Shown piece by piece: positions 10,077 through 38,147 of a stretch of DNA of 45,588 nucleotides; within the stretch, counting starts at the first letter, position 1; each line of letters opens with the position of its first letter. The position numbers and the translations under genes are program-made. The notes under the pieces were generated by a model. The model saw only the letters and a program-made list of their open reading frames with translations. It did not search any database and had not been told where the DNA came from. Source of the DNA: Vectrevirus PDP21P3; sequence record OZ035804.1. One strand, given 5' to 3'.

Positions 10077-10409
10077 ATGAAACGTGATGCAAACGCTTAT
10101 TATGAACTTCTGGCTGCAACTGTTGAAGCATTCAACGAGCGCATTAAATACGATGGTATCCGTGAAGGTGATGATTATTCTGATGCACTTCATGAGGTTG
10201 TAGGCGGCAATGTGCCGCACTATTATCATGAAATCTTTACTGTGATGGCTGCAGATGGCATTGATATCGAATTCGACGATGCTGGCTTGATTCCTGACAC
10301 TAAGGACGTAACCAAGATTCTACAGGCTCGCATTTATGAGGCGCTTTATAATGATGTGCCAAATAATAGCAGTGTAGTTTGGTATGAAGACGAAGAAGAG
10401 GAAGAATAA
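10077..10409 (+). CDS. ocr: Ocr-like anti-restriction DNA mimic (T7 gp0.3 homolog)
   Basis: ERIKYDGIREGDDYSDALHEVVGGNVPHYYHEIFTVMAADGIDIEFDDAGLIPDTKDVTKILQARIYE aligns closely with T7 Ocr as remembered; acidic poly-Glu C-terminus. Confidence 0.85.
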   Translation: MKRDANAYYELLAATVEAFNERIKYDGIREGDDYSDALHEVVGGNVPHYYHEIFTVMAADGIDIEFDDAGLIPDTKDVTKILQARIYEALYNDVPNNSSVVWYEDEEEEE

Positions 10410-10604: not shown

Positions 10605-11489
10605 ATGACTACTGAAAACACCCTCCTGTCTGTTCGTGAAGCTGCAACCGCTGAAATCAAGCAACATTTGGATAATATCGGCACTTCTTACATCAAAGTA
10701 GGTGCTTGTCTGAATGAGTTACGCGGTGACTTTGAAGGTCAAAAAGACTTTTTGGCTTATGTAGAATCAGAATTTGGAATCAAGAAAGCACAATGCTACA
10801 AGTTGATGAGCGTGGCGCGTGTCTTTGAAGGCGATGATCGCTTTAAAGGCGTGGCGATGCGTGTAATGCTGGCACTTGTTCCTTTCGCTGATGAAAATAT
10901 CATCATGGAGAAAGCCGCAGAACTTGCCGCAGCGGGCAAGCTGGACACTAACGCCGTGAACGCCCTGATTGAGCCTAAGAAAGAGCCAAAGTCTGAGACG
11001 GTACAACCCAAGGCTGAGCCTGTAAAACCGCAGGAGAACGCGACTGCGGCCGCAGAATCACAGGAAACGCAAGCGCCGCAGGAAGTGCCGCCAGCAAGTG
11101 AGTCGGATGACGACAAATCAGCACCGTGGGAAGAGGAAAGCAAGCCGGAAGCGCCAAAGGCCGCGCCACTGGACAACACGGCTAACACTGAAAACGCCGC
11201 TATGGCTGGCCTACTGGCACAAATTAAGGCACTGACTGAGCAATTACAGGCAGCTAACGACCGCATCGCCGCCCTAACCAGTGCACGCGAAAGCAAGAAG
11301 GCAGCCGCGCCTATGCTTCCACAGTTTAAATCCTCTTGCTTTTACGCTCGCTTAGGTTTGAGCGCTGAAGAGGCAACGAAGAAAACTGCTGTTAACAAAG
11401 CACGCCGCGAACTGGTTAAACTGGGTTACGGTGAAGGACACGAGGCATGGCCTTTAATCTCTGAGGCAGTAGAAGAATTGACCAAGTAA
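10605..11489 (+). CDS. early protein of unknown function with acidic Pro/Glu/Ala-rich linker
   Basis: 294 aa; structured N- and C-terminal regions separated by a low-complexity segment (…PKKEPKSETVQPKAEPVKPQENATAAAESQETQAPQEVPP…); occupies the position of T7 gene 0.7 but shows no kinase motifs. Confidence 0.6.
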   Translation: MTTENTLLSVREAATAEIKQHLDNIGTSYIKVGACLNELRGDFEGQKDFLAYVESEFGIKKAQCYKLMSVARVFEGDDRFKGVAMRVMLALVPFADENIIMEKAAELAAAGKLDTNAVNALIEPKKEPKSETVQPKAEPVKPQENATAAAESQETQAPQEVPPASESDDDKSAPWEEESKPEAPKAAPLDNTANTENAAMAGLLAQIKALTEQLQAANDRIAALTSARESKKAAAPMLPQFKSSCFYARLGLSAEEATKKTAVNKARRELVKLGYGEGHEAWPLISEAVEELTK

Positions 11490-26691: not shown

Positions 26692-27691
26692 GCTTCGCAG
26701 CTTGTACAAAGACTCCGAGGTGCTTGATGCAATCGAGCAAGCTACCGACGAGAAAGGTAATGTTAACTATAATGAGATGGCGAAGATTCTATCTAGCCAC
26801 CCTGTGGGTAAGAAGATCACCCGTCAACTTGCTCGCTATTGGCATGGTCAATTCAAGAAGACCAAGAAGAATGGTGATTACTACCAGACTCTTCTGCAAG
26901 AGGATAAGCGTATCAAAGAAGAGCGTAAGCTCAGGACTCCTGACCGCTACGAGGATTTGGCTATTGTACCATTGCCTGACTCGCCTCATCGAAGTGTACT
27001 GGTAATCCCTGATACTCATGCACCTTATGAGCACCCCGATACCTTAGAGTTCCTTGCAGCAGTGGCAGCACGTTATCGACCAGACACAGTGGTACATCTT
27101 GGAGATGAGGCAGATAAACATGCCCTGTCATTCCATGATTCGGATCCAAATTTGGACAGTGCTGGCATGGAGTTAGAGAAAGCTCGTGTCTTCATGCACA
27201 AGTTGCACAAGATGTTTCCTGTGATGCGCCTGTGTCACTCTAATCACGGCTCTATGCACTTCCGTAAGGCAAGCGCCAAGGGTATTCCAGTGCAATATCT
27301 TCGTACCTACCGAGAAGTCTTCTTCCCGCAGGGAGGTGGCGACCAGTGGGATTGGCAGCATACGCATGTACTTGAGTTGCCGAATGGCGAACAGGTGGCA
27401 TTCAAGCATCAACCTGCTGGCTCTGTCCTAGCAGATGCAGCGCATGAGCGTATGAATCTTGTGTGTGGTCACTTGCATGGTAAGATGTCTGTGGAGTACG
27501 CACGTAATACACATGAACAGTATTGGGCTATGCAGGGTGGCTGCTTAATTGATGAGTCATCCCGTGCATTTGCCTATGGGCGTGAGTCTAAATACAAGCC
27601 AGCATTAGGTTGTGTGGTGATTCTAGATGGTGTGCCGCACATTGTCCCGATGCAGACCAATAGTGACAATCGCTGGATTGGTAAGATTTAG
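26684..27691 (+). CDS. calcineurin-like metallophosphoesterase
   Basis: VIPDTHAP…HLGDEADKHA…SNHGS…GHLHG = metallophosphoesterase motifs I-V; probable TTG start 6 nt after AAGGAGG (track start 26654 lacks RBS). Confidence 0.65.
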   Translation: MGKLRSLYKDSEVLDAIEQATDEKGNVNYNEMAKILSSHPVGKKITRQLARYWHGQFKKTKKNGDYYQTLLQEDKRIKEERKLRTPDRYEDLAIVPLPDSPHRSVLVIPDTHAPYEHPDTLEFLAAVAARYRPDTVVHLGDEADKHALSFHDSDPNLDSAGMELEKARVFMHKLHKMFPVMRLCHSNHGSMHFRKASAKGIPVQYLRTYREVFFPQGGGDQWDWQHTHVLELPNGEQVAFKHQPAGSVLADAAHERMNLVCGHLHGKMSVEYARNTHEQYWAMQGGCLIDESSRAFAYGRESKYKPALGCVVILDGVPHIVPMQTNSDNRWIGKI

Positions 27692-27708
27692 TTGACACTA
27701 TAGAACAA
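27686..27708 (+). promoter_or_regulatory. phage RNAP promoter (SP6-like variant)
   Basis: ATTTAGTTGACACTATAGAACAA, one mismatch from canonical SP6 promoter core as remembered; followed by hairpin and TGATTGTGTAGTG motif. Confidence 0.55.
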
Positions 27709-29664: not shown

Positions 29665-29797
29665 AGGGATGGAGATGCTTGAGATGATTCTCAAGCCTTC
29701 TTCTCCTAAGGTGACTAAGACTCATGAAGAGTTAATCGTTGATGAAGTTAAGCGTTACATCATGGATTGTGTCAGAGCACAACTGGTGGTCCAATGA
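29627..29797 (+). CDS. hypothetical protein
   Basis: 56 aa from ATG after GAGG; overlaps neighbours. Confidence 0.3.
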   Translation: MAQTKKKPTISFEGMEMLEMILKPSSPKVTKTHEELIVDEVKRYIMDCVRAQLVVQ

Positions 29798-30255
29798 TAC
29801 GTCCAGCTTCCTTCCTAGATATTCCTGAGATTATAAACCTTGGGAATAAATATGTGGAAGAGGAAGTCAAGGTAGTAGCCCATCACTCAGCCTCATGGAA
29901 TGCAGAACAAAGCGCACATAATCTTTGCGCATCTCTTAGTAGAGAAGATTTATTCCTATGGGTAGCTGTGGATGAAGGGCAGATTGTAGGATTCCTGTGG
30001 GCTGGCTATCACGAGTTAGCCCCTTGGACGCCTGTAAGAGTTGCCTCTGACATTCTCTTTTACATTATACCAGAGAAACGAGGGACACTACTCGGTATGC
30101 GTCTCATTAAGGCTCTTAAACAATGGGCCAATGAAAGTGAATGCTCTGAGGTTCGTCTATCTATCGCCTCTGGTATTAACGAAGAACGTGTCGGACGTAT
30201 GTATAAGCTACTTGGCTTTGAACCGTTTGGCACTGTGTATAACCTGAAGTTCTAA
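29794..30255 (+). CDS. GNAT-family N-acetyltransferase
   Basis: 153 aa; QIVGFLWAGY…RGTLLGMRLIKALKQWA region fits the acetyl-CoA binding motif (R/Q-x-x-G-x-G/A) of GNAT enzymes. Confidence 0.65.
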   Translation: MIRPASFLDIPEIINLGNKYVEEEVKVVAHHSASWNAEQSAHNLCASLSREDLFLWVAVDEGQIVGFLWAGYHELAPWTPVRVASDILFYIIPEKRGTLLGMRLIKALKQWANESECSEVRLSIASGINEERVGRMYKLLGFEPFGTVYNLKF

Positions 30256-30475: not shown

Positions 30476-32026
30476 ATGAAACAGAGCGCAGATTTGGAGT
30501 ATGGAGGTAAGCGGTCTAAGATACCTAAGCTATGGGAGAAATTCTCCACTAAACGTAGCTCTTTCCTTGATAGGGCGAAGCATTACTCCAAATTAACCTT
30601 GCCCTATCTGATGAATGACAAAGGTGATAACGAGACTTCGCAGAATGGATGGCAAGGTGTAGGTGCTCAGGCAACTAACCACCTAGCCAACAAGCTAGCG
30701 CAAGTGCTATTCCCTGCACAGCGCTCCTTCTTCCGTGTAGACTTAACTGCACAAGGTGAGAAGGTTCTTAATCAGCGTGGCCTGAAGAAGACAGAGCTAG
30801 CTACTATCTTCGCTCAAGTGGAAACACGGGCAATGAAAGAGTTAGAGCAACGTCAATTCCGGCCTGCTGTAGTGGAAGCATTCAAGCATCTTATTGTTGC
30901 TGGTAGCTGTATGCTATACAAGCCGAGCAAAGGTGCAATCAGTGCTATCCCAATGCATCACTATGTAGTTAACCGTGATACCAATGGCGACCTGTTAGAC
31001 ATTATCTTACTGCAAGAGAAAGCCTTACGCACCTTTGACCCAGCCACACGTGCTGTAGTTGAGGTAGGCTTGAAAGGTAAGAAATGCAAGGAAGATGACA
31101 GCATTAAGCTGTACACACATGCTAAGTATCTTGGTGATGGTTTTTGGGAACTCAAGCAATCTGCTGATGATATCCCTGTTGGTGAGGTAAGTAAAATCAA
31201 ATCAGAAAAGTTACCATTTATCCCACTGACTTGGAAGCGAAGCTATGGTGAAGATTGGGGTCGTCCTTTAGCAGAGGATTACTCTGGTGATTTATTCGTT
31301 ATCCAATTCTTATCTGAAGCGGTTGCCCGTGGTGCTGCATTGATGGCAGATATCAAGTACCTGATTCGTCCAGGTGCTCAAACTGATGTTGACCATTTTG
31401 TTAACTCTGGCACTGGTGAGGTTGTCACTGGTGTAGAAGAAGATATCCATATTGTACAGTTAGGTAAGTATGCAGACCTCACACCTATTAGCGCAGTTCT
31501 AGAGGTGTACACTCGCCGTATCGGTGTCGTATTCATGATGGAGACGATGACACGCCGTGATGCAGAACGTGTTACTGCTGTAGAAATCCAGCGAGATGCG
31601 TTAGAGATTGAGCAGAACATGGGCGGTGTATATTCCCTCTTTGCTACTACTATGCAATCGCCAGTAGCGATGTGGGGTTTGCTGGAGGCAGGTGATTCAT
31701 TCACAAGTGACCTAGTTGACCCTGTGATTATCACAGGCATTGAAGCATTAGGGCGCATGGCTGAACTTGATAAGCTGGCAAACTTTGCTCAGTATATGTC
31801 ATTGCCACTCCAGTGGCCTGAACCTGTCCTAGCTGCTGTGAAATGGCCTGACTATATGGATTGGGTACGTGGTCAAATCTCTGCTGAACTGCCATTCCTT
31901 AAATCGGCTGAAGAGATGGAACAAGAACAGGAAGCACAAATGCAAGCACAGCAAGCACAGATGCTTGAAGAAGGTGTGGCTAAGGCCGTGCCGGGTGTAA
32001 TTCAACAAGAACTTAAGGAGGCGTAA
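30476..32026 (+). CDS. portal (head-to-tail connector) protein
   Basis: 516 aa, located directly upstream of scaffold and capsid genes as in T7 gene 8. Confidence 0.85.
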   Translation: MKQSADLEYGGKRSKIPKLWEKFSTKRSSFLDRAKHYSKLTLPYLMNDKGDNETSQNGWQGVGAQATNHLANKLAQVLFPAQRSFFRVDLTAQGEKVLNQRGLKKTELATIFAQVETRAMKELEQRQFRPAVVEAFKHLIVAGSCMLYKPSKGAISAIPMHHYVVNRDTNGDLLDIILLQEKALRTFDPATRAVVEVGLKGKKCKEDDSIKLYTHAKYLGDGFWELKQSADDIPVGEVSKIKSEKLPFIPLTWKRSYGEDWGRPLAEDYSGDLFVIQFLSEAVARGAALMADIKYLIRPGAQTDVDHFVNSGTGEVVTGVEEDIHIVQLGKYADLTPISAVLEVYTRRIGVVFMMETMTRRDAERVTAVEIQRDALEIEQNMGGVYSLFATTMQSPVAMWGLLEAGDSFTSDLVDPVIITGIEALGRMAELDKLANFAQYMSLPLQWPEPVLAAVKWPDYMDWVRGQISAELPFLKSAEEMEQEQEAQMQAQQAQMLEEGVAKAVPGVIQQELKEA

Positions 32027-32946
32027 TGTCTTTCTCATTTAATGAACCGTCAACCACTCACCCTACTGCTGAAGAGAATCCGGCAGAAACCAAGGAGGTA
32101 ACAACTAATGCTGCTACTACTGATGTTCCTGCTGACGCTGGCACTGATGTACAAGATGACAATTCTGGTGCACAACCTATTGAAGACGCCGGAGGAGAAG
32201 CTTCTGGACAGCCTTCAGAAGAAGGAGACAATGGCGGAGAGAATGGTGAATCTAAGCCAGATGATACCGCGACCGACACCGAGGAAGTGCAATACTTCTT
32301 CGGAGAGCATGAAGTAACAGTAGACATCCCACAGGATGTAACTGATAGTCTTAAAGAGAAAGGCATTGATGCTAAGCAGGTTGCCAAGGAACTCTATGCC
32401 AAAGATGGCAAGTTTGAACTGTCCGATGCAACCAAGCAGAAGCTATATGATGCCTTTGGCAAGTTTGCAGTAGATGCCTACCTGTCTGGCCTTAAGGCAC
32501 AGAATGAAGCTTTCTTCCTGAAGGAAGCTAACGCAGCTAAGGAACTGGAAGCAGCTAACACTCAGCGCTTCTCTGATGTTTCTAAGGAAGTTGGTGGCGA
32601 AGAAGGCTGGTCCCGTCTTGAGGCATGGGCGCTTGAAGCGCTGTCCGATGATGAACTAACGGCATTCAATGCGGTGATGGAATCTGGCAACCAGTACCTC
32701 CAGCAGTACGCTGTGCGTGAACTGGAGAGCCGCCGTAAGGCTGCACAAGGTGATGACAAGCCAAACCTGATTGAACCCTCTGCACCTGCTGCTGCATCTG
32801 AAGATAACGGCCCTCTCTCGCGTGAGCAATACCTGCGTGAGATGATGACCCTTAGCTCTCGCTTCGGCACAGACAAGAAAGCTGCTGCTGAGTATCAGGC
32901 TAAACTAGATGCTCGCCGCCGCGCTGGTATGGCTCGCGGATTATAA
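32026..32946 (+). CDS. capsid assembly scaffolding protein
   Basis: 306 aa, acidic, helical low-complexity sequence between portal and capsid. Confidence 0.7.
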   Translation: MSFSFNEPSTTHPTAEENPAETKEVTTNAATTDVPADAGTDVQDDNSGAQPIEDAGGEASGQPSEEGDNGGENGESKPDDTATDTEEVQYFFGEHEVTVDIPQDVTDSLKEKGIDAKQVAKELYAKDGKFELSDATKQKLYDAFGKFAVDAYLSGLKAQNEAFFLKEANAAKELEAANTQRFSDVSKEVGGEEGWSRLEAWALEALSDDELTAFNAVMESGNQYLQQYAVRELESRRKAAQGDDKPNLIEPSAPAAASEDNGPLSREQYLREMMTLSSRFGTDKKAAAEYQAKLDARRRAGMARGL

Positions 32947-32951
32947 TCAGT

Positions 32952-32974
32952 ATTTACTGGACACTATAGAAGGG
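32952..32974 (+). promoter_or_regulatory. phage RNAP promoter (capsid promoter)
   Basis: ATTTACTGGACACTATAGAAGGG; +1 G at 32969 followed by 5' hairpin GGGAGAaatgTCTCCC. Confidence 0.75.
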
Positions 32975-33022: not shown

Positions 33023-34228
33023 ATGTCTACGCCGAATAACCTGACCAACGTTGCAGTCTCCGCTTCCGGTGAGGTAGACAGCCTGCTCATTGAGAAATTC
33101 AATGGTAAGGTAAATGAGCAGTACCTGAAAGGTGAGAACATCATGTCCTACTTTGATGTTCAGACTGTTACTGGTACTAACACTGTAAGCAACAAATACT
33201 TGGGTGAAACCGAGTTGCAGGTTCTGGCGCCGGGTCAGTCTCCGGCTGCAACCTCCACTCAGGCAGATAAAAACCAGTTGGTAATTGATGCCACCGTTAT
33301 CGCTCGTAACACTGTTGCTCACCTACATGACGTACAGGGTGACATTGATAGCCTGAAGCCTAAGCTGGCAACCAACCAAGCTAAGCAACTGAAGCGTATG
33401 GAAGATGAAATGCTGATTCAGCAGATGCTGCTGGGCGGTATTGCTAACACTCAGGCTAAGCGTACCAATCCGCGTGTGAAAGGTCATGGCTTCTCTGTTA
33501 ACGTCGAAGTAAACGAAGGTGAAGCACTGGTTAACCCACAGTATGTAATGGCGGCGGTAGAGTTCGCTCTGGAACAGCAGCTTGAGCAGGAAGTTGACAT
33601 CTCCGATGTAGCCATCCTGATGCCGTGGCGCTATTTCAACGTACTGCGTGATGCGGATCGTATCGTTGACAAGAGCTACACCATTAGCCAGTCTGGTGCA
33701 ACCATTCATGGCTTCGTACTGTCTTCCTACAACTGTCCAGTTATCCCATCTAACCGATTCCCGAAATTTGCTCAAGGTCAGAAGCATCACCTGTTGTCTA
33801 ACGAAGACAACGGCTACCGCTATGACCCTGTTGCAGAAATGAACGGCGCGATTGCTGTACTGTTCACTGCCGATGCACTGTTGGTGGGACGCTCCATTGA
33901 TGTTACTGGCGATATCTTCTATGAGAAGAAAGAGAAGACCTACTACATCGACACCTTTATGTCTGAGGGTGCAATCCCTGATCGTTGGGAAGCAGTTTCT
34001 GTTGTGACCACTAAGCGTAATGTCACCACTGGTGCTGCTGACAGTACCGCTGCTGCACAGCATACTCAGGTTCTGAACCGTGCACAGCGCAAAGCTGTAT
34101 ACGTCAAGAATGCTGCTCCGGCAGGTGATGCCGCTGCTGCTACTCTTTCTGCTGAAGACTTGGTTGCTGCTGTCCGTGCTGTAATGGCAAATGACATTAA
34201 GCCGACTGCAATGAAACCTACTGAGTAA
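33023..34228 (+). CDS. major capsid protein
   Basis: 401 aa; own promoter, strong RBS AAGGAGG, highly biased codon usage, followed by terminator. Confidence 0.85.
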   Translation: MSTPNNLTNVAVSASGEVDSLLIEKFNGKVNEQYLKGENIMSYFDVQTVTGTNTVSNKYLGETELQVLAPGQSPAATSTQADKNQLVIDATVIARNTVAHLHDVQGDIDSLKPKLATNQAKQLKRMEDEMLIQQMLLGGIANTQAKRTNPRVKGHGFSVNVEVNEGEALVNPQYVMAAVEFALEQQLEQEVDISDVAILMPWRYFNVLRDADRIVDKSYTISQSGATIHGFVLSSYNCPVIPSNRFPKFAQGQKHHLLSNEDNGYRYDPVAEMNGAIAVLFTADALLVGRSIDVTGDIFYEKKEKTYYIDTFMSEGAIPDRWEAVSVVTTKRNVTTGAADSTAAAQHTQVLNRAQRKAVYVKNAAPAGDAAAATLSAEDLVAAVRAVMANDIKPTAMKPTE

Positions 34229-34234
34229 TACCTA

Positions 34235-34269
34235 TGCCCTATCTACCCTGCGTAGGTAGGGTTCTTTTT
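34235..34269 (+). terminator. phage Tphi-like terminator after capsid gene
   Basis: GC-rich hairpin (CTACC…GGTAG) followed by TTCTTTTTG. Confidence 0.55.
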
Positions 34270-34282
34270 GTTAGGAGGGTTC

Positions 34283-35020
34283 ATGCCTGTAATTAGACAA
34301 ACCAGTAAAGTAGGACATATGATGGAAGATGTGGCCTTCCAGATTATTGATAGTAAGCTGGAAGCGGTAAACTTGTGTATGCGAGCTATTGGTCGTGAGG
34401 GTGTGGATTCTCTCGACTCAGGTGACTTGGACGCAGAAGACGCAAGCAAGATGATTGACATCGTATCCCAGAGGTTCCAGTACAACAAAGGAGGTGGCTG
34501 GTGGTTCAATCGTGAACCAAACTGGCAGATTGCACCTGATACCAATGGTGAAGTCAACTTACCTAACAACTGCCTAGCAGTATTGCAGTGTTACGCTTTG
34601 GGCGAGAAGAAAGTACCAATGACTATGCGAGCAGGTAAGCTCTACTCTACATGGAGTCATACCTTTGATATGCGTAAGCATGTGAATGCTAATGGTATGA
34701 TTCGTCTTACCTTACTCACCTTACTTCCATATGAGCATCTACCTACAAGTGTAATGCAGGCTATTGCCTATCAAGCTGCTGTAGAGTTTATTGTGTCTAA
34801 GGATGCAGATCAGACTAAGTTAGCCACTGCACAGCAGATTGCCACTCAGCTTCTTATGGATGTGCAATCAGAACAAATGTCACAAAAACGATTGAATATG
34901 CTTGTGCATAATCCTACGCAGCGTCAGTTCGGTATTATGGCGGGTGGTTCTCAGAATGTACCTGCTTACTCTCATTCACCATATGATAGTTGGACCCTTC
35001 GTCCGTGGGAGGATCGGTAA
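34283..35020 (+). CDS. tail tubular protein A (gp11-like)
   Basis: ATG after AGGAGGG; N-terminal region resembles T7 gp11; synteny. Confidence 0.8.
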   Translation: MPVIRQTSKVGHMMEDVAFQIIDSKLEAVNLCMRAIGREGVDSLDSGDLDAEDASKMIDIVSQRFQYNKGGGWWFNREPNWQIAPDTNGEVNLPNNCLAVLQCYALGEKKVPMTMRAGKLYSTWSHTFDMRKHVNANGMIRLTLLTLLPYEHLPTSVMQAIAYQAAVEFIVSKDADQTKLATAQQIATQLLMDVQSEQMSQKRLNMLVHNPTQRQFGIMAGGSQNVPAYSHSPYDSWTLRPWEDR

Positions 35021-37425
35021 TGGAAGTACAAGGTTCATTAGGGCGGCAAATACAAGGGATTAGCCAGCAACCTCCAGCAGTACGCCTTGATGGTCAATGC
35101 ACGACTATGGTGAACATGGTTCCCGATGTAGTGAATGGGACTCAATCCCGCATGGGTACAACTCACATTGCTAAGCTCTTGGATGAAGGTACAGATAATA
35201 TGGCAACGCACCATTATCGCAGGGGCGAGGGGGATGAAGAGTATTTCTTCACCTTAAAGAAAGGGCAAGTGCCAGAGATATTTGATAAGCATGGACGTAA
35301 GTGCAATGTCGTCTCTCAAGATGCACCTATGACCTACCTTTCTGAAGTTGTCAGCCCTAGGGAAGATGTGCAATTCATGACTATAGCTGATGTTACTTTT
35401 ATGCTTAACCGTAGGAAAGTGGTTAAAGCTAGTAATAGGAAGTCACCTAAAGTTGGAGATAAAGCCATTGTGTTTTGTGCATACGGTCAATATGGTACAT
35501 CTTATTCTATCGTAATTAATGGAACTACAGCTGCTAGTTTTAAAACACCAGATGGTGGAAGTGCAGAACATGTTGAACAAATCCGAACGGAGCGTATCGC
35601 TTCTGAATTGTACTCCAAGTTACAGCAATGGAGTGGTGTAGGCGACTATGAGATACAAAGAGATGGTACGAGTATATTTATAGAGAGACGCGATGGTACA
35701 AGTTTCACAGTAACAACTACCGATGGTGCAAAAGGTAAGGATTTAGTGGCTATCAAGAATAAAGTTAGCTCTACTGACCTACTCCCTTCTCGTGCGCCTG
35801 CTGGTTATAAAGTACAAGTATGGCCCACTGGCAGCAAACCGGAGTCTCGTTACTGGCTGCAAGCTGAGCCTAAAGAGGGAAACCTTGTGTCTTGGAAAGA
35901 AACAATAGCTGCTGATGTATTACTTGGGTTTGATAAAGACACCATGCCTTACATTATTGAACGTACAGGTATTATTGACGGCATAGCTCAATTCACGATA
36001 AGACAAGGTGATTGGGAAGATCGTAAAGTAGGAGATGACTTGACTAACCCTATGCCCTCTTTTATTGATGAGGAAGTGCCCCAGACAATAGGTGGGATGT
36101 TCATGGTGCAGAACCGCCTGTGCTTTACAGCAGGTGAAGCGGTTATTGCTTCTCGTACATCATACTTCTTCGATTTCTTTCGTTATACGGTTATCTCTGC
36201 ATTGGCAACTGACCCATTTGATATTTTCTCAGATGCGAGTGAAGTCTACCAGCTAAAACATGCAGTGACCTTAGATGGCGCTACCGTGTTGTTCTCTGAT
36301 AAGTCACAATTCATTTTGCCGGGAGATAAACCGCTAGAGAAATCCAACGCCCTACTCAAGCCTGTCACAACATTTGAAGTCAACAATAAAGTTAAACCAG
36401 TGGCTACTGGTGAGTCTGTAATGTTTGCTACGAATGACGGTGCTTACTCTGGTGTCCGAGAGTTCTATACAGACTCTTATAGTGACACTAAGAAGGCACA
36501 AGCAATCACAAGTCATGTGAATAAACTTATCGAAGGTAACATTACCAACATGGCAGCAAGTACCAATGTCAACCGATTGCTTGTCACCACAGATAAATAT
36601 CGTAACATAATTTACTGCTACGATTGGTTATGGCAAGGCACAGATCGTGTACAATCAGCATGGCATGTATGGGAGTGGCCTATGGGTACAAAGGTGCGCG
36701 GTATGTTTTACTCTGGTGAATTACTTTATCTACTCCTTGAGCGAGGTGGTGGTGGCGTCTATCTGGAGAAGATGGACATGGGGGATGCACTAACCTATGG
36801 TTTGAAGGACCGCATCCGAATGGATAGGCAAGCAGAGTTGATCTTCAAGCATTTTAAAGCAGAAGATGAGTGGATATCTGAACCGCTTCCTTGGACTCCT
36901 ACTAACCCAGAACTTTTGGATTGCATCTTAATAGAAGGGTGGGATGCATATATTGGAGGTTCTTTCCTATTCAAATATAACCCCAGTGATAATACCTTGT
37001 CTACAACCTTTGATATGTATGATGCTAACCACGTAAAAGCGAAGGTTATTGTTGGGCAGATTTACCCTCAAGAGTTTGAACCTACACCTGTAGTTATCAG
37101 AGACAGGCAAGACCGTGTATCTTATATTGATGTACCTGTTGTGGGATTAGTTCACCTGAATCTTGATATGTACCCTGATTTCTCCGTGGAGGTTAAGAAT
37201 GTGAAGAGTGGTAAAGTACGCAAGGTGCTAGCGTCAAACCGTATAGGTGGTGCTCTCAACAATACAGTAGGTTATGTTGAACCAAGAGAGGGTGTCTTCA
37301 GATTCCCACTGAGGGCTAAGAGTACGGATGCTGTTTATCGTATTATTGTAGAATCACCTCACACATTCCAGCTCCGCGATATTGAGTGGGAAGGGAGCTA
37401 CAATCCAACCAAAAGGAGGGTCTAA
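35020..37425 (+). CDS. tail tubular protein B (gp12-like)
   Basis: starts MEVQGSLGRQIQGISQQP (T7 gp12 has GISQQP near N-terminus); ~801 aa. Confidence 0.85.
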   Translation: MEVQGSLGRQIQGISQQPPAVRLDGQCTTMVNMVPDVVNGTQSRMGTTHIAKLLDEGTDNMATHHYRRGEGDEEYFFTLKKGQVPEIFDKHGRKCNVVSQDAPMTYLSEVVSPREDVQFMTIADVTFMLNRRKVVKASNRKSPKVGDKAIVFCAYGQYGTSYSIVINGTTAASFKTPDGGSAEHVEQIRTERIASELYSKLQQWSGVGDYEIQRDGTSIFIERRDGTSFTVTTTDGAKGKDLVAIKNKVSSTDLLPSRAPAGYKVQVWPTGSKPESRYWLQAEPKEGNLVSWKETIAADVLLGFDKDTMPYIIERTGIIDGIAQFTIRQGDWEDRKVGDDLTNPMPSFIDEEVPQTIGGMFMVQNRLCFTAGEAVIASRTSYFFDFFRYTVISALATDPFDIFSDASEVYQLKHAVTLDGATVLFSDKSQFILPGDKPLEKSNALLKPVTTFEVNNKVKPVATGESVMFATNDGAYSGVREFYTDSYSDTKKAQAITSHVNKLIEGNITNMAASTNVNRLLVTTDKYRNIIYCYDWLWQGTDRVQSAWHVWEWPMGTKVRGMFYSGELLYLLLERGGGGVYLEKMDMGDALTYGLKDRIRMDRQAELIFKHFKAEDEWISEPLPWTPTNPELLDCILIEGWDAYIGGSFLFKYNPSDNTLSTTFDMYDANHVKAKVIVGQIYPQEFEPTPVVIRDRQDRVSYIDVPVVGLVHLNLDMYPDFSVEVKNVKSGKVRKVLASNRIGGALNNTVGYVEPREGVFRFPLRAKSTDAVYRIIVESPHTFQLRDIEWEGSYNPTKRRV

Positions 37426-38147
37426 TGGCTATAGGTTCTGCCGTTATGGCTGGTATGTCTTCTATTGGTAGTATGTTTGCAGGCAGCGGTGCAGCAGCCG
37501 CTGCTGGAGGTGCTGCCGCAGGTGGCGGAGGCTTGCTAGGTTCTCTAGGTGGCTTCCTAGGCGGCTCTACTGCTGGCTTCTCTAATGCTGGGCTTCTTGG
37601 TGCTGGCCTTCAAGGTTTAGGCTTGATTGGTGATCTCTTTGGTGGAAGTGATGAAGCCAAGGCAATGAAGAAAGCACAAGAAGAACAGTGGCGGCAGCAA
37701 CTTATTGCTACACAAGAAGCATACAAAACAGTAGCAGATGCAGAGCGTTCTGCTGCTAAACAATATCATGCAGATGCAATAAGCAATCAGGCTTCACTAC
37801 TACAGCAGCGAGCACAGGTTGCATTACTAGCAGGTGCTACTGGTACTGGTGGTAACTCTGTATCTTCTATGCTGAATGACTTAGCAGCAGAGGGCGGGAG
37901 GAACCAGAGTACAATTATTGATAACTATGAGAATCAGAAGATTAACTTCACCAATCAGCTTAAGTCTATCCAGCGAGGTGGACAGATGCAGATGCGTGAG
38001 TTTAAGAAGCCTTCTGCCGTAAGTACCTTGGTGCAAGGTATTCCAAGTCTGGCTTCTGCTTATGTAACTGGTAGCAAGTCGGGCATGGCTTTAGGTAAAG
38101 CTCTAACGGATTCTCGTACATATTCATCTGGAACAAGAGGTATTTAA
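37425..38147 (+). CDS. internal virion protein A
   Basis: ATG after AAGGAGGG; Gly/Ala-rich N-terminal half; first of three genes after the tail tube genes. Confidence 0.6.
   Translation: MAIGSAVMAGMSSIGSMFAGSGAAAAAGGAAAGGGGLLGSLGGFLGGSTAGFSNAGLLGAGLQGLGLIGDLFGGSDEAKAMKKAQEEQWRQQLIATQEAYKTVADAERSAAKQYHADAISNQASLLQQRAQVALLAGATGTGGNSVSSMLNDLAAEGGRNQSTIIDNYENQKINFTNQLKSIQRGGQMQMREFKKPSAVSTLVQGIPSLASAYVTGSKSGMALGKALTDSRTYSSGTRGI

Follow-up and report, generated by a model that had tools for sequence, protein, structure and literature searches.

To our knowledge, the chemical action of the small assembly factor of T7-like and P22-like phages, internal virion protein A (IVP-A), has never been explained. 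IVP-A is needed for morphogenesis and is not kept in the virion; standard homologues occur in Epsilon15 and P22, the T7 protein (gp13) matches acetyltransferases by HHpred, and phiRIO-1-like phages, in a comparison whose Fig. 7 includes SIO1, carry a non-structural gene of the acetyltransferase family in the IVP-A slot (Hardies et al., PMC4819975). The GNAT acetyltransferase of cobaviruses has likewise been equated with T7 gp13 (Bischoff et al., PMC6775973), and in phiPsa17 both gp13 and a GNAT encoded in the slot of gene 7 went undetected in the virion proteome (PMC4517105). A different activity is described for Gp28 (Rac) of phage LUZ19, a GNAT whose gene follows that of the phage RNA polymerase and precedes the first of the structural genes: as shown experimentally, its expression leads to cleavage of the linker of the host RNA polymerase alpha subunit by host proteases, an effect that is abolished when the acetyl-coenzyme A (acetyl-CoA) pocket is mutated (PMC7552054). 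Here, we describe a 153-aa GNAT encoded upstream of the portal gene of Vectrevirus PDP21P3 (sequence record OZ035804.1; 45,588 nucleotides, referred to below as the window). We tentatively favor a role for this protein as a non-structural and probably catalytically active assembly factor for the ejected virion proteins, a reading to which we give somewhat less than an even chance.

The source phage is a K1E/K1-5/SP6-like Vectrevirus (Autographiviridae, Molineuxvirinae) and not T7 proper, and the window represents its complete genome. By megablast, the stretch from 29000 to 31000 matches record OZ035769.1 (Vectrevirus PDP21P3, likewise 45,588 bp) at 100% identity; it is ~97% identical to phage VEc3 and ~94% identical to K1E. 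The window is circularly permuted with respect to the K1E and VEc3 records, with an offset of ~9.5 kb; this offset puts its start in the small terminase/homing-endonuclease (HNH) region and assigns 326-2227 to the large terminase (VEc3 gp47).

The reading frame of the GNAT gene extends from an ATG at 29794 to a TAA at 30253-30255. We took this ATG as the start, and not the in-frame TTG at 29767 given by the mechanical list of open reading frames (ORFs), because all homologues begin with MIR; it shares bases with the stop codon of the preceding 56-aa ORF (ATGA), and a GGTGG stands 4 nt before it. That the product would have a GNAT fold was already proposed in a preliminary description of this DNA, and profile and structure comparisons bear this out. 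The protein matches Pfam PF00583 (Acetyltransf_1) with 37.5 bits (cut-off, 20.7; E=3.3e-9), passes PF13508 as well, and falls in PHROG 1249 ('acetyltransferase') with E=2.4e-52. An AlphaFold2 model built from 22 homologues has a pLDDT (predicted local distance difference test) of 88.5 and a pTM (predicted template modeling score) of 0.85, and its predicted order of elements, b1-a1-a2-b2-b3-b4-a3-b5-a4-b6-b7, is that of a classical GNAT.

The orthologs K1E gp27, the SP6 153-aa ORF (Gp28 in the numbering of AAP48767) and VEc3 gp33 are 76-98% identical to the window protein, are of equal length with equal neighbors, belong to PHROG 1249 as well, and show no substantive difference from it. RefSeq already labels the K1E and VEc3 orthologs 'acetyltransferase', while the SP6 ortholog appears as 'Unknown' in a paper on a Salmonella phage. 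The gene itself is therefore known and annotated, and its functional role is what stays worth testing. The ratio of nonsynonymous to synonymous substitution rates (dN/dS), calculated pairwise for relatives with unsaturated dS only, is 0.025-0.055, and the divergence of the GNAT sequence keeps pace with that of the portal; this is a core gene under strong purifying selection.

For a view of how far the family extends, tblastn detected the GNAT protein in 245 phage records. Among the matches listed, all 60 records measure 35-49 kb and are podophages where classified; their hosts include Escherichia, Salmonella (SP6), Klebsiella, Proteus, Erwinia, Vibrio, Aeromonas, Pseudomonas syringae and Marinomonas, among others. 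At ≥60% identity, the GNAT is found in 136 records as against 146 for the portal (~93%), and the gene is therefore near-universal in the K1E/SP6-type clade. In an exhaustive profile search of 1.84 billion cluster representatives, 3,553 matched at E<=1e-10, a number that rises to 12,580 when the limit is relaxed to E<=1e-3. Almost all of the best 150 are ~150 aa long, and the three that were tested (3/3) fall in PHROG 1249. Some metagenomic relatives reach 318-385 aa and consist of two tandem GNAT domains; no other partner domain was seen. A scan of 185,579 prokaryotic species (one genome each) with a narrow motif found no cellular member.

Scores against the hidden Markov models (HMMs) of the window family are 55-105 bits for distant members from Nostoc phage NMeng1 and from Rhizobium phage RHEph15, and 78-121 bits for those from Acinetobacter phage TPWB-05 and from two Zobellviridae, Lentibacter phage ICBM2 and Roseophage SIO1. 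The best solved GNAT reached 36 bits, a value that refers to the smaller of the window-family HMMs (A2), the larger one not having been run against the PDB. The SIO1 protein also aligns with the window GNAT by BLASTP over its full length, with 28% identity and E=8e-17. This breadth bears on the notion of an anti-defence enzyme that would acetylate an immune protein of the host, in the way that AcrVA5, an anti-CRISPR, acetylates Cas12a. GNAT anti-defence proteins do exist (cited in PMC7552054), but genes of this kind are as a rule early, variable and restricted to particular hosts, whereas the gene considered here appears late and syntenic, and is conserved from phages of Escherichia to those of Vibrio, Pseudomonas, Marinomonas, Nostoc and roseobacters. 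We therefore regard an anti-defence function as very unlikely.

In an alignment of 149 family members (median identity to the query, 29%), the best-kept positions are R3, D9, E23, G66, A84, D86, Y90, P93, R96, G97, L104, W111, A112, G127, R132, Y137, G141 and G146, with position 137 being Y in 110 and F in 20 of the sequences. Compared with the motif Q/R-x-x-G-x-G/A, the loop R96-G97-T98-L99-L100-G101 keeps a near-invariant R96 and an A or G at position 101, with the central G replaced. The R96-G97...A/G101 stretch lies in the loop from strand 4 to helix 3, where GNATs bind the CoA pyrophosphate. Such binding uses backbone amides; the loop, with its central G replaced, is hence compatible with it and is a putative CoA site. 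Many GNATs have a general base on strand 4 and a general acid on helix 4; D86 (strand 4) and Y137 (helix 4) stand at the corresponding places and are candidates for these catalytic roles. Judged from these sequence features, the protein is probably an active acetyltransferase, and three conserved acidic residues (D9, E23 and D86) suggest a cationic amine as acceptor.

An acceptor of this kind would also suit a small-molecule acetyltransferase that neutralizes polyamines, or compounds of the aminoglycoside or amino-acid-analogue type, and so conditions the cell for replication or DNA packaging. Working spermidine acetyltransferases are encoded by diverse phages (PMC9992855), and the best sequence and structure neighbors of the window protein include the polyamine acetyltransferase DpA, SSAT, thialysine acetyltransferases, phosphinothricin/ArsN enzymes and AAC(6'). 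Nevertheless, cellular small GNATs (DpA, SSAT/thialysine acetyltransferase, phosphinothricin/ArsN, Naa60/Ard1 and RimI) share only 12-25% identity with it, and every curated cut-off is missed widely, with 25.7 bits against a cut-off of 170 for NCBIfam ArsN1a and 24.7 against 140 for AAC(6') group E. Sequence and profile searches of the PDB returned generic small GNATs at 20-36 bits. On balance, a small-molecule substrate of this sort seems distinctly improbable. A Rim-type enzyme (RimI/RimJ/RimL), which the preliminary description had offered for comparison, was rejected, the score for TIGR01575 rimI in NCBIfam being 21 bits, far under its curated cut-off of 86.4.

The immediate surroundings of the gene agree with the earlier placement just upstream of the structural module, in that a gp7.3-like gene and then the portal gene follow (Table 1). 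This arrangement is well kept. That is, in 44/44 related viral contigs from IMG/VR the portal starts 220-316 nt after the GNAT, and in 39/44 of these loci tblastn detects the gp7.3-like gene in between. A small ORF fills the GNAT-portal gap in all loci extracted, and those missed by tblastn share the same C-terminal motif. The gene order is equal in the Colwellvirinae phages Alpheus and Vp670. The virion of T7 contains gp7.3, which is needed for adsorption (PMC3276506) and is ejected at infection (PMC4517105). With a gp7.3-like gene directly downstream, the GNAT therefore occupies the slot held by gene 7 in T7. The gp7.3-like proteins encoded after the GNAT have the common C-terminal motif GKRxL(V/R)RP...GLxV, and in every lineage their N-terminus consists of M followed by G, S or A. 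We considered this N-terminus as a pointer to acetylation of the gp7.3-like neighbor and discarded it; the sequence is compatible with N-terminal acetylation and too common to count.

A promoter pattern search of the window gave 21 sites, weaker ones included, against 4.5 expected by chance. Twelve good SP6-type promoters on the + strand have the core GACACTATAGAAG and share the upstream flank ATTTAC(T/C)G. The search found no phage-promoter match between the site at 27694 and the GNAT gene, nor any further one before 32960, and because of the former we conclude that the GNAT is probably co-transcribed with the preceding ligase gene and with the genes for portal and scaffold that follow it. 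The sole strong terminator-like hairpin of the scan is the one at 34236, after the capsid gene. A weaker one at 29677-29696 (+), with 8 pairs and a poor T-tract (CTTCTTCTCC), sits inside the gp26-like ORF, ~100 nt upstream of the GNAT start.

These surroundings speak to another idea of the preliminary description, namely, a toxin of the TacT/AtaT type that would acetylate aminoacyl-tRNA and halt host translation. The points of agreement are limited to size (about 150-175 aa) and the GNAT fold. The upstream ORFs contain no RHH or DUF1778 antitoxin domain, the gene downstream is gp7.3-like, and profile and structure comparisons revealed no specific similarity to the solved TacT/AtaT/KacT toxins; moreover, a translation blocker co-expressed with structural genes would presumably be self-defeating. 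We consider such a toxin extremely unlikely. Nor did a link to a tRNA-nucleotidyltransferase-like gene materialize, as the scan of the larger uncharacterized ORFs, which covers part of the ORFs of the window, showed no such Pfam or PHROG domain. Gene context is a poor fit to the small-molecule, toxin and anti-defence readings alike. The toxin and translation story is thus best dropped, and the gene itself is an ordinary one.

The same context is what leads us to infer an assembly role. The protein represents the K1E/SP6 group in a very large family of podophage GNATs whose genes always lie inside the particle-assembly gene block. It may be the counterpart, in the K1E/SP6 lineage, of podovirus IVP-A (T7 gp13), which is not itself structural but is required for ejected or internal virion proteins to be built into infectious particles. 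It would be a small, soluble enzyme that binds acetyl-CoA and stays out of the virion, made late from a phage-polymerase transcript shared with the portal and scaffold genes. The proteins to be assembled would be the neighboring gp7.3-like protein plus the gp14/15/16-like core. In addition, the protein would act not as a chaperone only, and would transfer an acetyl group onto a phage protein, at the N-terminus or a lysine. We infer this transfer because the family keeps the R-G of the CoA loop, the acidic residue of strand 4 and the tyrosine of helix 4, a conservation of the catalytic site that an assembly role alone would leave unexplained.

Gene order in relatives offers the most direct connection to IVP-A. 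The GNAT genes of SIO1, ICBM2 and TPWB-05 are flanked by those of tail tubular protein B and internal virion protein B (IVP-B), and so occupy the slot of T7 gene 13 (gp13/IVP-A). The acetyltransferases of SIO1, the cobaviruses and TPWB-05 belong to one sequence family with the window GNAT and are like it in their length of ~150 aa, their non-structural nature and their place inside the assembly block; they differ in lying between tubular B and IVP-B and not upstream of the portal. In the window, no gene is present in the gp13/IVP-A slot, where the genes for tubular B and the gp14-like protein overlap by TAATG. The simplest reading is that K1E/SP6-like phages carry an IVP-A-type GNAT before gp7.3 and the portal instead of before IVP-B. 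An assembly factor would account for the fixed place among assembly genes, with two slots in two phage families, for the probable late co-transcription, for its being a core gene in phages of such diverse hosts as E. coli, Vibrio, Nostoc and roseobacters, and for the missing gp13 gene.

Several observations weigh against this assignment. The window GNAT gives no match to Pfam PF11090, the T7 gp13 family. When the window family was compared by hhalign with a six-member gp13 profile, the two aligned co-linearly over 120 columns, but weakly and without significance (E=0.002-0.005; probability, 7-13%). The same gp13 profile had no significant match to solved GNATs in the PDB or to the Rac family, and P22 gp14 gave no significant match either; that gp13 has an acetyltransferase fold rests on the literature and is not reproduced in the present comparisons. 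Like the window GNAT, T7 gp13 is a small, non-structural protein of the assembly block, but it does not have the R-G CoA loop kept by the window family and is encoded in another slot. The GNAT gene lies 4.7 kb upstream of the overlapping genes for tubular B and the gp14-like protein, in the slot of gene 7, which in LUZ19 holds Rac. Finally, gene neighborhood is circumstantial evidence, and the searchable literature, including that on SP6-like phages, turned up no functional study or experiment on any member of the GNAT family.

The shared slot gives rise to the alternative that the enzyme, like Rac, serves host takeover by acetylating host proteins late in infection and shutting down host functions. 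Rac is a GNAT of ~157 aa, and LUZ19 has the identical arrangement of small ORF, GNAT, small virion protein, portal and scaffold. Within the window family itself, the members of NMeng1 and RHEph15 lie in a phiKMV-type order of RNA polymerase, small ORF, GNAT, small ORFs and portal. Shut-off of the host RNA polymerase is, moreover, otherwise unaccounted for, since phmmer found no homolog of T7 gp2, gp0.7 or gp5.7 or of LUZ19 gp25.1 in the genome, although this test is insensitive and also missed the gp7.3-like ORF that the PHROG profile had found. An hhalign comparison of the window and Rac families gave a probability of 95-96% with E ~1e-8 over 83-125 columns, but this is the value that any two GNAT families give, and it indicates a shared superfamily only.

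More specific comparisons did not bring the two families together. The window GNAT has no match to phrog_3986 (Rac) at E<=0.01, and BLASTP finds nothing. With the window-family HMM, Rac relatives score <=15 bits as against up to 36 bits for solved cellular GNATs; with the Rac-family HMM, the window protein scores 23 bits as against 33 bits for a thialysine acetyltransferase; and Rac itself reaches 21 bits with phrog_1249, no better than its 23 bits with the generic Pfam GNAT model. As the cross-family HMM scores are below those to cellular GNATs, sequence orthology with Rac is not supported. Alpha cleavage, for its part, is limited to the genus Phikmvvirus, and no cleavage occurs with LKA1 despite its GNAT in the corresponding position (PMC7552054). 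Rac is also without effect in P. putida. By these sequence comparisons, Rac is a positional analogue and possibly an ancient relative, of similar size and with its gene likewise followed by those of a small virion protein and the portal, whereas the window GNAT lies outside the Rac family and the alpha-cleavage phenotype belongs to one genus. The host-takeover role that the preliminary description had entertained thus retains the analogy with LUZ19 Rac and lacks specific sequence support, and we regard it as unlikely.

Rac relatives are present in the gene-7 slot of other Krylovirinae, of Pantoea phage LIMEzero and of Ghunavirus phages such as KNP; searches for related loci with Rac or T7 gp7 returned close relatives only, and protein homologue searches with Rac and with the Alpheus GNAT yielded few sequences. 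Proteins of the Rac family match phrog_2746, the 'host range' family of T7 gene 7, with E down to 3e-8, and an alignment of gp7 proteins matches the Rac alignment with E=1.4e-4 over 101 columns in which the invariant D, H, G, P, A and H coincide. T7 gp7 gives no Pfam GNAT signal and is without the CoA loop. T7 gene 7 may be a degenerate, distant relative of the Rac GNAT family. It shares with the window GNAT the slot directly upstream of gene 7.3, but is related to the Rac family and not detectably to the window family. An earlier remark that a GNAT is not part of the canonical T7 gene set has accordingly to be qualified. The phage at hand is K1E/SP6-like, where the gene is core and annotated, and the statement is shaky even for T7, because gene 7, which occupies the corresponding slot, belongs to a family with a distant relationship to the Rac GNATs, and because gp13 is reported to be acetyltransferase-like (PMC4819975).

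One could extend the assembly-factor reading to a common origin, in which a single ancestral assembly-linked GNAT gave rise to T7 gp13, T7 gp7, LUZ19 Rac and the K1E/SP6 GNAT. Particles would then become infectious only if an ejected or internal virion protein had been acetylated, the ancestral gene would have switched between two places in the structural module, and Rac would have been turned against host RNA polymerase. We think this broader scenario rather improbable.

Unlike T7 gp13, the window family keeps an intact-looking acetyl-CoA site, and does so in phages that are easily engineered (K1E, K1-5 and SP6). This makes the family convenient for asking whether protein acetylation contributes to the building of infectious podophages, or whether host shut-off of the Rac type is common. 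Such phages are used against K1-capsulated E. coli, and whether the GNAT gene is dispensable matters for their engineering.

Table 1. Features of the window around the GNAT gene, and SP6-type promoters
Feature	Position	Strand	Remarks
Small conserved ORF, K1E gp25-like, 65 aa	29467..29664	+	phrog_5860 E=4e-39; no Pfam match; annotated in K1E
Small conserved ORF, K1E gp26-like, 56 aa	29627..29797	+	phrog_6507 E=2e-37; Pfam matches weak, sub-threshold
GNAT-fold acetyltransferase, 153 aa, single domain	29794..30255	+	Ortholog of K1E gp27 and SP6 153-aa ORF
T7 gp7.3-like protein, K1E gp28, 69 aa	30265..30474	+	phrog_1320 (T7 gp7.3 family) E=1.9e-11
Portal (head-tail connector), first large structural gene	30476..32026	+	K1E and VEc3 annotation; tblastn to 2367 Autographiviridae-type portals
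Scaffolding protein	32026..32946	+	K1E and VEc3 ortholog annotation
Major capsid protein	33023..34228	+	Terminator-like hairpin after, 34236-34262
Tail tubular protein B	34990..37425	+	Stop overlaps next gene's start (TAATG, 37423-37427)
Internal virion protein B, T7 gp14 family	37425..38147	+	Pfam PF24072 T7_gp14 E=1.2e-32
SP6-type phage RNA polymerase promoter atttagttGACACTATAGAAC	27683..27706	+	Nearest one upstream of GNAT gene (site 27694)
Phage promoter before major capsid gene	32952..32972	+	Pattern match (site 32960)
Twelve SP6-type promoters	129, 2234, 3909, 10524, 14280, 17297, 18184, 22021, 22484, 23630, 27694, 32960	+	

Elsewhere in the window, two tandem paralogous ORFs of 112 and 95 aa (2322-2657 and 2673-2957, +) lie between the terminase and endolysin genes. 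They fall in phrog_2725, 'acetyl-CoA acetyltransferase', a label that has no Pfam support, looks inherited and is unreliable. The 294-aa ORF at 10605-11486 (+), before the RNA polymerase gene, belongs to phrog_4571 and has no Pfam match. The window also encodes, at 10077-10409 (+), an Ocr-type DNA-mimic anti-restriction protein like that of T7 gene 0.3 (Pfam PF08684, E=4e-32).

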